Part shown: positions 19,970 through 25,116 of the stretch, piece after piece
Layout of the letters: the number at the start of each line of letters is the position of its first letter
Numbering within the stretch: position 1 is the first letter of the stretch
Origin: a phage
Sequence record: PZ166176.1
Reading direction: 5' to 3' (one strand)
DNA: 64,000 bases
Translations under genes and position numbers: made by a program
Notes under the pieces: model-generated
The model's input: only the letters and a program-made list of their open reading frames with translations
Told to the model about the DNA's origin: nothing
Database searches by the model: none

Positions 19970-22642
19970 ATGTTTCCAATTCCAATATTTACTATTATGA
20001 CCAGCACTGGTGTCGTTCCTCTGCCAGCAGGTATTGTTAAAAAAGTAATTACTTTAGATTACCCAGATAATGCTGGTAATTCTAACAGCAGTTTAGCAAT
20101 TTTGCTTAATGATGGTAGATTGTTTACTCAAGGCGCAAACCTCTTTGGTGAGATTGCAGATGGAACTCGTAGTGCACGATTCAATAATTTCCACTTAGCT
20201 TCTACTGTAGTAGCGGATGTGTTTACCGCAGATCGTTGTTTTGTTATTAAAACTAACAGTGGGGGATGGCAATATTCAGGATTGACAGCAGGGTTAGTAG
20301 GATCTATAGCAGCAGGTGGTACGGATGCATGTGTAACTACTTGGACCAGCTTTCCATCTGTAATAACAGGGACTATCTCTTTAGCCAATCTTAAAGAGGT
20401 TAAGGGAGGATATAACAACACTCTCTGGTTAATGAATAGTGGTGTTCTTTATGGATCGGGTCAAAACACAGTAGGTAGTTTAGGTGCAAGCACTACTAAC
20501 GAAGTTTCTACTCCTCGTCAGATAACAAGTTCAGCAGTTGCTTTTGATGCAGGTTACAACCAATGCTCTTATGTCAACAATGTGGGAACCTTGCGTGTTT
20601 GTGGAGCTAGTAAAGGTTTAGCAGGTAATAATAACACAACAACAGCTTTTGTCAATGCCAAGATATCCGCTACTGAAACAGTGTATGTCAAAGATTACAT
20701 CAATACAGTTTCCCAGACAATAGTTGTAGGAGATACCTCCGGTGGCACGGGTACAGTAAACTACTTATATGTCAGGTCTAATACAGAAACAACCTACACT
20801 AAACTGGATACCTTTGCAGCAGGTTTCTCAACATGGAAATTTCCACCAAGCCGCCACTCTTTTTTCGTTGGGATCAACAATTCCTTGTGGGCTATTGGTA
20901 AGAACTACACTGCAAACTTAGGTTTGGGGTATGATTCTGCGAGCGGAGATCCACTCCAAGTGGGAAAACCAGTTAAACCTGAAGGAGTGGGTTCTTGGGA
21001 TATAAACAAGCTCACAAGCGTTCATACGCTGAATATGGATATTACTAACCAATTAGGTTATCAAGGAACCTTTTTCGTTTATAACGGGGATATGTATTAT
21101 TCCGGTATTTGGAAAGATGGGAAAGCCTCGTATCTGTTCAACAGTGGTCTAAATTATAATAAATTCACACCGATAGCAAGCTCTGTGATTACGGGTGATA
21201 TTCTGGCAACTGGTTTAACTACAGATTCTTTAGGAATTTGTATTGTAGGTGGAACTAAACAGTTGACACATTCTGTTAGCCCAGAAGGAGGTAAACTTTT
21301 CAATATTAAATACACTTCTTCTGCCCCTGCAAACATGACAATATCATCCACTGGTTTAATGACTTTCCATGCAGAAGGTGGTTTTGATGCAGGTATGACA
21401 GCCTTAAACGCTGAAGGAACAACTTTATCAGATACCTCTGGAGGATATGCTTCAACATTGAGTGTTTACACCCCTAGCTTATCTGCGATGGATGTAGGAA
21501 CAACACAAACAATGGTAGCAGAAATAACGCCAACAGGAGCAGCAAGCTTACCTGGTATGGTTGTTGAGTATACAACTACAGATCCTAATGTTGCTACAGT
21601 AGATCCTACAACTGGTGTAATAACTGGTGTTGGTGATGGTGGTTGTAGAATTGGTTGCACAGCTACGTATCAAGGTGTTGTTACCGCTTCTGATAGTTCT
21701 TATTTAACGGTGAACGCTGTTGCGGGAAAGGAGTTAGCTCCATCTCCGAGTAGTAGTTTAACGGTTCTAAACGGATATTTCAACCACTCGGCAGATGGGG
21801 CAATTACGTTCCCAATTTTATCGGGTACTGTCACACCAGCTAACTTTGTAGTTAAGGTGGATGACGTTGTAATACCTTCAAATAAAGTAATATTTAGAAA
21901 TAAAGCTTTCTCTACAGTGGATAGTTATCCAGCAGGAGAATATAGACTGGCTATTGAATTTGCAAGTGCTTCAGTAGTGAATAGTGTTGATGTGTCTATG
22001 GAAGCAAATCCAGATCTTTTAGAATTATGGGGCGGCAACAGAATTGGTTATTCTACAAGCCCAGCCTCACAATTCTTAAAAGGTTGTGCTAACTTAAGAC
22101 GAATAACTTCTGATTGTTTTAGTAACACATCTTACACCGGAACATCTATAAGTGGTATCTTCTCTGGCTGTACAAGTTTGACAGCTATCCCTGAAGGATT
22201 ATTCAGTGATGCTTTATTTCCTTCAATGACAACAATGTCAAGCACGTTTGAAGGTTGTACATCTTTAACATCTATTCCTTCAGATTTATTTAAGAATCTA
22301 TCAAAAGTTACAAGATATTCTTACACCTTTAAAGATTGCACCTCTCTTGCAGAAGTTCCAGCAGGAATGTTTGATAATATTCCAACGAAAGTGACCTCTT
22401 TAACAGCTACATTCCAAGGTTGTTTAGCACTTACAGATTTTAATAAAATCTTTAATGACAACCCAGGGTTAACGGTTTGTGGTCAACGTGGAGCATTATC
22501 TTCTTTCTTTAGTGGATGCACAAATCTTACAGGAACAGGAGTAACATTAACAAGCACATTAGGTGGAGCAGCTAATAGTTACCTATTCAGGTATTGCACA
22601 AAACTTTCTGATTATAACAATATTCCTTCGGGTTATAAATAA
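19970..22642 (+). CDS. distal tail fibre / receptor-binding protein with Big_2-like domain and BspA-type leucine-rich repeats
   Basis: 890 aa; Big_2-like segment (MDVGTTQTMVAEITPTGAASLPGMVVEYTTTDPNVATVDPTTGVITGVGDGG); C-terminal repeats of F-x-GCTSLT-x-IP-x-x-LF. Confidence 0.55.
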   Translation: MFPIPIFTIMTSTGVVPLPAGIVKKVITLDYPDNAGNSNSSLAILLNDGRLFTQGANLFGEIADGTRSARFNNFHLASTVVADVFTADRCFVIKTNSGGWQYSGLTAGLVGSIAAGGTDACVTTWTSFPSVITGTISLANLKEVKGGYNNTLWLMNSGVLYGSGQNTVGSLGASTTNEVSTPRQITSSAVAFDAGYNQCSYVNNVGTLRVCGASKGLAGNNNTTTAFVNAKISATETVYVKDYINTVSQTIVVGDTSGGTGTVNYLYVRSNTETTYTKLDTFAAGFSTWKFPPSRHSFFVGINNSLWAIGKNYTANLGLGYDSASGDPLQVGKPVKPEGVGSWDINKLTSVHTLNMDITNQLGYQGTFFVYNGDMYYSGIWKDGKASYLFNSGLNYNKFTPIASSVITGDILATGLTTDSLGICIVGGTKQLTHSVSPEGGKLFNIKYTSSAPANMTISSTGLMTFHAEGGFDAGMTALNAEGTTLSDTSGGYASTLSVYTPSLSAMDVGTTQTMVAEITPTGAASLPGMVVEYTTTDPNVATVDPTTGVITGVGDGGCRIGCTATYQGVVTASDSSYLTVNAVAGKELAPSPSSSLTVLNGYFNHSADGAITFPILSGTVTPANFVVKVDDVVIPSNKVIFRNKAFSTVDSYPAGEYRLAIEFASASVVNSVDVSMEANPDLLELWGGNRIGYSTSPASQFLKGCANLRRITSDCFSNTSYTGTSISGIFSGCTSLTAIPEGLFSDALFPSMTTMSSTFEGCTSLTSIPSDLFKNLSKVTRYSYTFKDCTSLAEVPAGMFDNIPTKVTSLTATFQGCLALTDFNKIFNDNPGLTVCGQRGALSSFFSGCTNLTGTGVTLTSTLGGAANSYLFRYCTKLSDYNNIPSGYK

Positions 22643-22643
22643 G

Positions 22644-22668
22644 AAAAGGAGCCAAATGGCTCCTTTCT
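22644..22668. terminator. bidirectional terminator at the convergence of the + and - blocks
   Basis: AAAGGAGCC-AAAT-GGCTCCTTT hairpin with T-rich flank on the + strand, between convergent genes ending at 22642 and 22670. Confidence 0.65.
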
Positions 22669-22669
22669 T

Positions 22670-23164
22670 TTATTCAGCGTTCAACCCTTCCCCATGTTCT
22701 TGATGCCAAGCTTCATGGTGCAGAGGACACAGCCATAGAACATCTAACGGTTTATCATAATCACAATGATGAGCATGAACATCAACAGACCCACACACTT
22801 GGCAAGGTTGTTTTACTAACTTTCCATCTCGGAGTGCGTTACCTACAGCTATATGAGCAGAACGTTTTTTCGGATTCTTTTCGATGTAACGTTTCTTAGC
22901 TTCATTAGCCTTATCTTTACCTTTCCCTTTTGCGTAAGCCTCTTTCAAAGCTTTGCGCTCTGGGGTCTGATCTCTGCTTTTATCATACTCTTTGTAATAT
23001 TCAGATTTATCTTTACGATTCTGTTTAACATCTTTCTTATTACATTCCTTGCATTTATTGACGTGACCGTCAGCCATAGCTTTATGTTTGTAAAATTCAG
23101 TGAGGGGCTTTAACACCCCACACTTGAAACAAACCTTAGAAGCAATGCAGGAAGTTTCGACCAT
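22670..23164 (-). CDS. HNH homing endonuclease
   Basis: C-terminal CQVCGSVDVHAHHCDYDKPLDVLWLCPLHHEAWH is an HNH motif; N-terminal Cys pairs (CFKCG...CKEC). Start moved to the internal ATG (MVETS) because the track start runs far into the SSB gene. Confidence 0.6.
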   Translation of the reverse strand: MVETSCIASKVCFKCGVLKPLTEFYKHKAMADGHVNKCKECNKKDVKQNRKDKSEYYKEYDKSRDQTPERKALKEAYAKGKGKDKANEAKKRYIEKNPKKRSAHIAVGNALRDGKLVKQPCQVCGSVDVHAHHCDYDKPLDVLWLCPLHHEAWHQEHGEGLNAE

Positions 23165-24068
23165 ATTGCAGTCCAATAGGGGCAAATGGAATATCATCAT
23201 CGAAGTCCATTGGAGGTTCTTCTTGATTACTTGGAGTTGGTTCTGGTTGTGGTTCAGGCTTCTTAACTTCTTTCTTCTCTTCTTTCTTAGGTTGTTCTGC
23301 GGAACCACGGATGGCAGCAGCAACTTTATCAGACAGAGCCAGAACTTTACGAGCAGAGTCAATCAGATCTTCTACAGATACAGTCTTAATGGTATGGTCT
23401 TTACAAGCATTGAGGATAGCGTGACCAACAGATGCCCCAAGATCATAATCATTAATATCAACGCCACGAGATTCAGCAATTTCCGATTTCAGTGTGACAG
23501 TTGCAGATTGAACAACCCCAGCGATATCGAAAGCATCGCCTTTAACACCATTACGAATCAGTTCCAGTGCACCATTTACTGCGTGACCAGTTTCCAGACC
23601 TACAGTATCACGTTTTTTATAGGATTGCTTAGGAGCAGCATCGTTGGAACCTTTATTGCCAGAAGATTTGTTAGACTTCTGAACACCATCGGTAGACAAT
23701 ACTGTAATACGAGATTTTTTAGTATTGTAGTAAGTTTTACCGCCTTTATTATCAACGCGATCAATATCAATACTTACTTCTACACCTTTTTCAATAGTGA
23801 TCCAATTATCACCTTCTTTGACTTGCAGGTTTTCATAACCTTCTTTCAGTTCAATGTCACCAAGAGAAATCCAAACACCTTTCTCATCTGGTTTAGCACC
23901 TTTCTCTTTCAGAACAAGAGAAGCTCGGTGAGTTGAAACAATCGTTTTTCCTTCCCAATGAAAAGTTTTAGGTTCAGCGAATTTATCCAGTTTAACGTAG
24001 TCTACGATACCAGTTGCATAAGTTACGGTTTTGCCTTTACGATCAGTTTCAGTATTAATTACGGACAT
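23136..24068 (-). CDS. ssb: single-stranded DNA-binding protein (SSB-like), C-terminally extended
   Basis: 310 aa; Pro/Glu/Lys-rich linker then MDFDDDIPF, the acidic tip of bacterial-type SSB, followed here by 15 extra residues (APIGLQYGRNFLHCF). Confidence 0.55.
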   Translation of the reverse strand: MSVINTETDRKGKTVTYATGIVDYVKLDKFAEPKTFHWEGKTIVSTHRASLVLKEKGAKPDEKGVWISLGDIELKEGYENLQVKEGDNWITIEKGVEVSIDIDRVDNKGGKTYYNTKKSRITVLSTDGVQKSNKSSGNKGSNDAAPKQSYKKRDTVGLETGHAVNGALELIRNGVKGDAFDIAGVVQSATVTLKSEIAESRGVDINDYDLGASVGHAILNACKDHTIKTVSVEDLIDSARKVLALSDKVAAAIRGSAEQPKKEEKKEVKKPEPQPEPTPSNQEEPPMDFDDDIPFAPIGLQYGRNFLHCF

Positions 24069-24522: not shown

Positions 24523-25116
24523 TTACCAAGGAATATCATCTTCTTCCAATCTGGCATCTACTTTAGGTGGACGTGGAACCTTAACCTCTTTCACAAAACG
24601 AAGATATGGGAAACGTGTAGCAATTTTAATAACATGTTTGGCATCTTCTCTAACATCTTTGTGCAAGAAGCAGATCCCTGTTTCCAAGGTTGTTTCAAAA
24701 TCTTTAGAATAATAACAGTCCTTCCCATCAAATGCAGCCTGGCAGATGGACAGATCGAACTCATTTAGAAAGGTTGTCATTACGCTTGGTTCCATAATCA
24801 TAAGGTTGCAAAGCTGACCATCACGTTCAAACTCAAAAACGTGTTTAAGACCAGTAACACCTTCATAATTGTCAGAAGCCTCTTTGTTTCCTAGTTTACG
24901 AATATTGGTTCCCATTAAAGCAGATGCAATTAATCCTTGTATTTGTTCTTCAGTCTGATGTGCAGGAAGGGATGTATAGAAATCCAGATCACGTCCAGCA
25001 ATATCAAGAATACGCCAATCACGAACAGCACCGCCAGCCAAGACAGAATTAGGATCAGCGATCTTTAATACGGTAAGAATCTCTTTGGCAATATTGATTT
25101 GTTTTGATTTAGTCAT
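24523..25116 (-). CDS. minimal Pol-beta superfamily nucleotidyltransferase (tRNA-NT head-like)
   Basis: LAGGAVRDW then DLD 13 residues later gives the GG-x(13)-DxD nucleotidyltransferase signature; GGAVRD matches the CCA-adding / poly(A) polymerase head. C-terminus ends EEDDIPW. Confidence 0.5.
   Translation of the reverse strand: MTKSKQINIAKEILTVLKIADPNSVLAGGAVRDWRILDIAGRDLDFYTSLPAHQTEEQIQGLIASALMGTNIRKLGNKEASDNYEGVTGLKHVFEFERDGQLCNLMIMEPSVMTTFLNEFDLSICQAAFDGKDCYYSKDFETTLETGICFLHKDVREDAKHVIKIATRFPYLRFVKEVKVPRPPKVDARLEEDDIPW

Follow-up and report, generated by a model that had tools for sequence, protein, structure and literature searches.

A nuclease gene overlapping the 3′ end of a phage ssb gene as a probable mobile cassette, and a recurrent peptide behind the SSB acidic tip

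In the 64,000-nucleotide stretch of phage DNA analysed here (sequence record PZ166176.1, hereafter the window), a gene for a protein resembling SSB (the protein that binds single-stranded DNA), here called ssb (310 amino acids, 23136..24068, minus strand), overlaps at its 3′ end a gene for a putative HNH-type nuclease of 164 amino acids (22670..23164, minus strand). The acidic tip that closes bacterial SSBs is followed in the window protein by 15 further residues, and the nuclease gene begins within the DNA that encodes them. We consider it probable that the pair represents an ssb gene with a free-standing, homing-type nuclease cassette at its 3′ end, and that the cassette belongs to a nuclease family located almost exclusively directly behind phage ssb genes. 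The window phage is a Phapecoctavirus, 98.6% identical at this locus to Escherichia phage Mt1B1_P17, and the comparison of its close relatives supports a cassette that is polymorphic at the ssb 3′ end.

The SSB tip is a central docking site for about 20 genome-maintenance proteins. In the SSB-tip complexes characterised so far, a hydrophobic pocket takes the side chain of the terminal Phe while a basic lip anchors its alpha-carboxylate, and binding is lost when this Phe is deleted, a change that kills E. coli (PMC10164576). The window protein carries the corresponding tip, MDFDDDIPF, at residues 287-295 (23184..23210, minus strand), where it is internal: the C-terminus of the encoded product reads ...EEPPMDFDDDIPFAPIGLQYGRNFLHCF, i.e., ...PSNQEEPPMDFDDDIPF followed by the 15-codon extension APIGLQYGRNFLHCF (23139..23183, minus strand), with the ssb stop codon at 23136-23138. 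The tip matches the C-terminus of E. coli SSB (PDB 1eqq residues 155-178; NF006533 positions 132-177), PPMDFDDDIPF being identical in the two proteins, and the acidic-hydrophobic motif D-F-D-D-D-I-P-F of this C-terminus (SSB-Ct) is present. The C-terminal Phe with a free alpha-carboxylate, which SSB-Ct binding requires, is not found in the encoded protein, where 15 residues come after the Phe; in E. coli SSB this carboxylate is free, whereas in the window protein it is absent unless the peptide is removed. Among 72 homologues, which also served as input for an AlphaFold model of the 310-residue protein, D288, D290, D292, P294, and F295 of the tip are invariant or nearly so. The predicted layout consists of an N-terminal OB-like beta domain (residues 1-125, 23694..24068, minus strand), a helical middle domain with four helices (residues 156-255, 23304..23603, minus strand; helices at 156-172, 179-201, 208-223, and 232-255, with a predicted local distance difference test score of 91-96), a disordered Pro/Glu/Lys-rich linker, the acidic tip and the post-tip extension. 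E. coli SSB has a canonical PF00436 body, whereas the body of the window protein does not belong to this family: Pfam gave no match for the 310 residues, the SSB OB-domain model (PF00436) included, the NCBIfam SSB model covers just the last 42 of them (22.7 bits versus a cutoff of 260), and the protein falls into phrog_4477, which is listed as ‘unknown function’. Similarity to the SSB family is thus confined to the last 40-50 residues.

A sequence-only reading of this DNA had described an SSB tip followed by 15 more residues, with a nuclease open reading frame (ORF) starting inside them in another frame, and this arrangement was confirmed, with an overlap of 29 nucleotides (23136..23164, minus strand). 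The nuclease start does lie inside the extension, as had been proposed, although its exact position is 23164 and not ~23167: the Tyr codon TAT supplies the first two letters of the ATG (23164-23162), and the Gly codon after it supplies the G. This start was preferred because the 164-residue homologues (P0121-P0123) begin with MVETSC, because the invariant first CxxC precedes the Met used in the Mt1B1_P17 record, and because the record of the relative PsgM04F annotates the identical overlap. An ATG within the TAT-G of LQY[GA] was also found in rV5_ev168, ABPH49, PsgM04F, and three further loci (L052, L068, L078). In the Mt1B1_P17 RefSeq entry (L001, NC_052662.1, 771-1178), the nuclease is begun at an internal Met, 29 codons late, and the resulting 135-residue annotation drops the first invariant CxxC and conceals the overlap with ssb. 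The gene pair is thus already in GenBank, where it is imprecisely annotated and its proteins are labelled ‘hypothetical’; the consequence for annotation is that current records miss the ssb/nuclease overlap.

The nuclease (MVETSCIASKVCFKCG..., phrog_2340) combines an N-terminal CxxC..CxxC zinc ribbon, a helical linker, and a C-terminal CxxC-HH-..-C-xx-H-H..H module of the putative beta-beta-alpha-Me (HNH-like) type. Across 57 nuclease homologues, both the ribbon (CxxC...CxxC) and the C-terminal block (CxxC-x7-HH-...-C-x3-H-x3-H) are invariant, including C121, C124, H132, H133, C146, H150, and H154 in the numbering of the window gene. The same homologues have a His-His...(Asn/Asp)...His motif in which the ‘N’ position is Asp/Glu or variable. 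Searches of the nuclease against Pfam returned nothing below an E-value of 0.04 and no HNH family, NCBIfam gave no match and PDB sequences no relevant one, so that family names come from PHROG alone (‘endonuclease’, ‘endonuclease VII’, and ‘HNH endonuclease’). The putative ‘HNH’ label is accordingly based on motifs, PHROG names, and weak fold matches, since Hpy99I and other two-zinc-site beta-beta-alpha-Me (HNH) nucleases show a weak likeness to part of the protein, which has no Pfam HNH membership at the sequence level. Closer at hand are the phrog_2340/phrog_1035 nucleases of Sf6 (gp26) and mEp021, which belong to the same family (39-51% identity) and, like the window gene, lie directly after ssb. 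These two follow a plain DIPF stop, with the nuclease starting 0-80 nucleotides later (type B), whereas in the window the start is buried in the SSB extension (type A).

An alignment of five close relatives, together with a census by junction-specific searches, resolved four alleles at this site, with 96-99% identity in their flanks. In the first (ESCO5 type), there is no nuclease gene and the SSB has 295 residues, ending exactly at DIPF; in the second (nepoznato type, type B), a different nuclease variant starts at the stop codon of a plain 295-residue SSB; the third is that of the window (type A), with nuclease and 15-residue extension; and in the fourth (DE16 type), the 310-residue SSB is kept while the nuclease gene is internally deleted, both of its ends being left. 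The census gave ~40 empty-site records, five type-B records (nepoznato, AV125, and phiWec188/190 among the plain-tip phages), four type-A phages (Mt1B1_P17, ZCKP1, nieznany, and PsgM04F), and five phages with the extension and a deletion remnant. In relatives with an empty site, the SSB does end exactly at DIPF (ESCO5 and ~40 records), and these phages are 96-98% identical in the flanks. The extension is absent from the ESCO5 and nepoznato SSBs and within Phapecoctavirus occurs only alongside the type-A nuclease or its deletion remnant. Sporadic presence and absence at one site in near-identical genomes, as is characteristic of homing genes, was therefore observed here, and extended and plain alleles also coexist among rV5-like SSB homologues. 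The part of the sequence-only reading that saw the footprint of a mobile gene holds to this extent. Taken literally, an extension in relatives without the nuclease gene speaks against such a footprint, and it does occur, in the DE16-like phages; since these keep both nuclease gene ends around the deletion, they argue for a cassette origin and not against it. Both the extended and the deleted-nuclease phages are viable isolates, and a capped SSB is therefore at least tolerated.

The borders of the type-A variant are sharp. Compared with nepoznato, the window shows no differences at 22657-22840 and dense differences at 22841-23140, and the left boundary falls at the Pro/Phe codons (23181-23187), beyond which divergence is ~2.5%. 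The type-A-specific segment is thus ~347 nucleotides long (22841..23187, minus strand) and contains the extension and the 5′ two-thirds of the nuclease gene, the left border of the cassette being exactly the Pro-Phe codons of the SSB tip and the type-A right border lying inside the nuclease gene, at ~22841. Sharp borders at tip-coding DNA together with a conserved nuclease 3′ part are the pattern expected from recombination of two cassette-bearing genomes. Separately, a 44-nucleotide patch in the nuclease 5′ region (window 23097-23140) is 97.7% identical to ~2001-2044 of the locus from Acinetobacter phage ABPH49 (L056, Vequintavirinae), outside of which the SSB and nuclease genes of the two phages are distant; this could be a gene-conversion patch or a case of extreme constraint.

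The link between nuclease and ssb extends well beyond these relatives. For 74 of the 80 closest nuclease relatives in IMG/VR, the ORF immediately in front has an acidic ..[ILV]PF tip at its end, and the junction is always right after the Phe codon, which represents the reproducible junction at a conserved target that is looked for in homing genes. In these 74 loci, the number of residues added past the Phe is 0 (18 loci), 1 (46 loci), or 4 to 15 (10 loci), the other tails in the family including a single N or S, SSEV, RHRHWLS, and APMRGPW. The same arrangement was found in cultured phages of Stephanstirmvirinae, Vequintavirinae (rV5_ev168, NDO71, and ABPH49), and Chaseviridae (2KOFFS), in the Lederbergvirus Sf6, and also in mEp021. 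Every extended member of the window SSB family that was examined (the window, PsgM04F, rV5_ev168, ABPH49, L148, L149, DE16, L011, and L028) is then followed by an overlapping type-A nuclease or its remnant. Taken together, these loci indicate modular cassettes that exchange with one another and have the tip-coding DNA as their common anchor. A literature search for free-standing HNH genes associated with ssb retrieved nothing specific.

Several members of the family have features of their own. At the loci with one added residue (46 of the 74; L070-L147), this residue is N, S, D, or R, and promoter-like TTGACC/TATAAT elements lie over the ssb stop; a junction reading CCTTTTAATTAGAACGGGTCTATAATGG or CCTTTTAGTTGACCCC-N17-TATACT resembles a promoter superimposed on the stop codon, and cassettes of this type seem to bring their own promoter. 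Both rV5_ev168 (L005, 2004-2627) and L148 (3414-3761) have the same N-terminal ribbon and the same overlap with an SSB extension, but on another nuclease body (phrog_1035, ‘endonuclease VII’), which we interpret from the sequence as a shuffling of domains between nucleases associated with ssb; with its 115 amino acids, the L148 copy is short and may be truncated. In Sf6 (L160, NC_005344.1, 1015-1977), the SSB ends plainly in ...DDSDIPF and the nuclease gp26 starts nine nucleotides later, while the C-terminus of gp26 itself reads ...PDEEPVTLPF-PRHAIHAI. RHAIHAI is also the end of the ABPH49 SSB extension, with six of seven codons differing synonymously, and the gp26 tail looks like a displaced former SSB tail with its post-tip peptide, fused to the nuclease. 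We had considered the ...LPFPRHAIHAI of Sf6 as a sign that the peptide is portable, and set this aside, as a displaced old SSB tail explains it better.

The extension itself is not peculiar to the window. In the 120 best homologue clusters, [AS]P[ILV]GL[QP]Y followed by 7-10 residues was present in all ~30 clusters that have anything past DIPF (31-66% identity to the window SSB), and a search of IMG/VR with the degenerate DNA pattern IPF[AS]PxGLQY returned 47 loci. At least 59 distinct phage SSB genes, which fall into two different architectures, carry [AS]P[ILV]GLQY and 7-9 further residues behind the tip. The majority of the 47 loci encode ordinary Gln/Gly/Pro-rich SSBs on contigs of 40-56 kb, and most have no nuclease gene downstream. 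Of 60 distinct sequences, 59 have an extension of 14-16 residues, and its C-terminus follows the pattern [LI]-x-[CAS]-[MILF]. A scan of bacterial genomes with the pattern gave 11 loci, mostly on gammaproteobacterial prophage-like contigs, including at least one chance match that reads on for 140 residues.

At the codon level, five of the eight codons of APxGLQYG differ synonymously between the window and rV5_ev168, and between the loci L029 and L051 (PALLNCM) 11 of 14 codons differ, all synonymously. Over 39 nuclease-free loci, the ratio of nonsynonymous to synonymous polymorphism was 0.46 in the second, pattern-free half of the peptide, as against 0.82 in the linker and 0.25 in the tip, the latter being strongly conserved in extended proteins too. 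The APIGLQ part, which lies upstream of the nuclease ATG, is free of constraint from the overlapping frame, which in rV5_ev168 is interrupted by a TAG four codons ahead of the ATG. The same motif in distant SSBs, the synonymous turnover, and the fixed length together argue that the extension is a selected module associated with the tip and not junk.

We also asked the question of the peptide without its tip. With a tip-free DNA pattern, 25 of 34 matches were SSB tails, and the other nine consisted of one frameshifted SSB-tail copy (L158) and eight internal matches in unrelated proteins; since the peptide was found only behind SSB tips, the idea of a portable C-terminal tag was rejected. In L158 (840-862), APIGLQYPALLMCM is out of frame with the preceding tip codons (...RYSI-APIGLQY...), which points to a frameshifted copy or, alternatively, to a sequencing error in this contig. 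Clamp-binding, PIP-box, and PDZ-type motifs were compared by eye and discarded because the spacing of the peptide does not fit. A full-text literature search found the post-tip motif (PIGLQY) in no paper, and one for phage tail extensions of DDDIPF returned only the HK620 Sak4/SSB paper, which treats the normal terminal tail. A nuclease-free extended SSB (L019) was used to look in GenBank for polymorphism of the extension on its own, and no close relatives of it were found there. In the searchable literature, neither the post-tip peptide nor the link of the nuclease family to ssb 3′ ends seems to have been described.

Some of these observations weigh against a homing-type cassette. To our knowledge, neither cleavage activity nor a target site is known for any member of the nuclease family, and the strict synteny with ssb could reflect a functional partnership instead of homing. 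PsgM04F, ~80% identical overall, has the full type-A cassette, which has diverged as much as the flanks apart from a stretch of 96% identity in the doubly coding region; the cassette may therefore be old in the clade and the empty sites may be losses and not ancestral. Most APIGLQY extensions (the 14-residue class, in canonical SSBs) have no nearby nuclease gene; since nuclease-free extensions are this common, the peptide exists independently of the cassette, which may have settled on an ssb that was already extended. Finally, the first seven residues of the peptide are fixed by the DNA search pattern, and the unbiased evidence of conservation comes from the homologue clusters and the junctions of the nuclease relatives alone.

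One alternative takes up part of these points and proposes an old, vertically inherited and co-adapted pair, in which the overlapping nuclease would work alongside the extended SSB in replication, recombination, or defence, with the absences being losses and no homing involved. The whole PsgM04F cassette at flank-level divergence and the near-obligate synteny with ssb (74 of 80 loci) are in line with such a pair, as is the start-codon overlap, which is typical of co-expressed partners. It is harder to reconcile with sporadic presence and variant swaps among genomes that are 96-99% identical, with the sharp mosaic boundaries and the patch shared with the distant ABPH49, with the same N-terminal module on different nuclease bodies, with the apparent old SSB tail displaced behind the Sf6 nuclease, and with the viability of isolates in which the nuclease gene is deleted. 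We therefore regard a purely vertical module as unlikely, if not negligibly so.

A second alternative concerns the peptide, which might act on translation or stability and not on docking, either as a C-terminal degron or as an element of the nascent chain at which termination pauses, so that it determines re-initiation on a next gene that overlaps or lies close by. The peptide always forms the last 14-16 residues before the stop, with the C-terminal pattern given above, and its endings (...YAL, ...YALA, and ...LNCM) are ones that we take to resemble the ...YALAA of ssrA. At many loci, the downstream gene starts within ~10 nucleotides, or overlaps when a nuclease gene is present. However, several loci have a gap of 40-160 nucleotides to the next gene, and the peptide follows SSB tips only, as the tip-free search had shown; this confinement suggests a role tied to the tip, and we judge a degron or translational element to be improbable.

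The footprint described in the sequence-only reading could mean that the insertion destroyed the ssb stop codon and that the 15 residues are accidental read-through into meaningless cassette sequence. The restriction of the extension to type-A cassettes or their remnants in Phapecoctavirus is what such an accident would produce, and the tails added by other cassettes of the family, from a single N or S to RHRHWLS, do look arbitrary. Nevertheless, motif and length recur in SSBs that are 31-66% identical as well as in canonical SSBs of IMG/VR loci that lack a nuclease gene, synonymous changes have reached saturation while the amino acids changed little or not at all, and APIGLQ, upstream of the nuclease ATG, cannot owe its conservation to the overlapping frame. 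Accidental read-through, which we now hold to be very improbable, is already largely refuted by these conservation data, and the synonymous divergence also excludes very recent copies of one segment. The possibility, raised in the sequence-only reading, that a frameshift from sequencing or assembly conceals a stop directly behind DIPF can be practically dismissed, as the same 310-residue frame occurs in at least nine independently sequenced phages (Mt1B1_P17, ZCKP1, nieznany, PsgM04F, DE16, ECO340P2, vB_Ec-G1, 536P1, and DIJ07P2) and in a protein cluster of 110 sequences, and programmed frameshifting was rejected with it, since no stop lies close to the Phe codon in either of the other frames.

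Returning to the homing-type cassette, the expression signals of the gene pair are sparse. Only a weak GGA precedes the nuclease ATG as a possible Shine-Dalgarno sequence, and no promoter-like site was found inside the ssb/nuclease pair. Two nucleotides past the ssb stop, inside nuclease codons 11-26, there is a predicted stable RNA hairpin (23086..23134, minus strand; minimum free energy −21.1 kcal/mol, z −4.0, with none of 200 shuffles as stable), which is built by the nuclease codons C-G-x-x-K-x-L. Analogous hairpins of other sequence are predicted in nepoznato, rV5_ev168, L039, and about half of the nuclease family. At least two pairing registers occur in the family (GGGGC/GCCCC and GGAGAGG/CCTCTCC, among the window, L003, L005, L039, and others), and members without the Gly are without the hairpin. 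Because of these registers and the many members that have no hairpin, covariation over a single structure was dropped, and support for the hairpin is given as stability z-scores. The hairpin, the weak GGA, and the lack of a promoter of its own would fit a low-level, coupled translation of the nuclease.

A mechanism can be proposed along these lines. By analogy to the free-standing endonuclease genes of phage T4, the nuclease would cut cassette-free ssb 3′ ends in mixed infections, and repair from cassette-bearing genomes would copy the cassette. Having no promoter of its own, it would be translated at a low level by coupling to ssb and damped by the post-stop hairpin. The type-A variant may have arisen or spread by recombination between co-infecting phages, with one crossover in the conserved tip-coding DNA and the other inside the resident nuclease gene, a plain SSB ending in DIPF being co-converted into an extended one and the post-Phe sequence of the donor being carried along. 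The peptide would be selected as a peptide, blocking the free carboxylate of the terminal Phe, and most likely changes or gates the docking of partners on the SSB tip; alternatively, it may be a cap, tolerated or processed, with which the cassette can occupy this site while the SSB still functions. As the tip is conserved in extended proteins and the peptide is selected, gating, re-targeting, or a processed cap is favoured over simple inactivation. A more far-reaching version, which we offer tentatively as possible rather than probable, is that the nuclease family uses the near-universal tip DNA as a landing site and shuttles C-terminal modules between unrelated ssb genes, with the APIGLQY peptide serving as a functional cap that rewires or gates the SSB hub during infection.

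Phage T4 provides the precedents for such a system, namely free-standing endonuclease genes that are promoter-less, overlapping, and hairpin-regulated, with segG located beside gene 32 and with the HNH gene mobE, whose start overlaps the nrdA stop (PMC2988022). Like segG and mobE, the window gene is a small nuclease gene wedged in beside a conserved gene of replication, and some close relatives have it while others lack it. As in these T4 genes, it appears to be promoter-less on the transcript of its host gene, with a start that overlaps the upstream ORF and with hairpins or coupling limiting expression, features that in the window are read from sequence alone. The likeness to segG includes its position beside an SSB gene, since segG lies between genes 32 and 59 and targets the SSB gene 32. 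SegG, however, is a GIY-YIG enzyme encoded upstream of gene 32, whereas the window gene encodes a member of a zinc-ribbon and putative beta-beta-alpha-Me family and sits exactly after the last ssb sense codon. Unlike segG, the window cassette alters the C-terminus of the SSB, and homing of its family is a proposal.

According to the prevailing view, the terminal Phe of the SSB tip and its free carboxylate are indispensable, and phage SSBs that are conserved and widespread nevertheless have 14-16 residues past the tip. These extended proteins offer a handle on whether the tip works internally, is unmasked by processing, or is a means by which phages silence the recruitment of host partners. The nuclease family behind ssb constitutes a clean system for target choice, for movement between unrelated phages, and for the reshaping of the ends of essential genes. 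If the cap does rewire the SSB hub, phages, or a selfish gene that they carry, would have a means, not recognised before, of controlling which host and phage proteins dock on SSB bound to single-stranded DNA.

Two features flanking the gene pair complete the picture of the locus. The right-hand border of the cassette is marked by a predicted bidirectional terminator hairpin (22644..22667) between the nuclease gene and a convergent tail gene of 890 amino acids, which ends at 22642; this terminator is kept in all five aligned alleles, whether the cassette is present or not. Upstream of ssb, a nucleotidyltransferase gene (phrog_10174, 197 amino acids, 24523-25116, minus strand) ends in ...RLEEDDIPW (24523-24546), a second acidic C-terminus in the same gene cluster that resembles the SSB tip and might share its docking partners.

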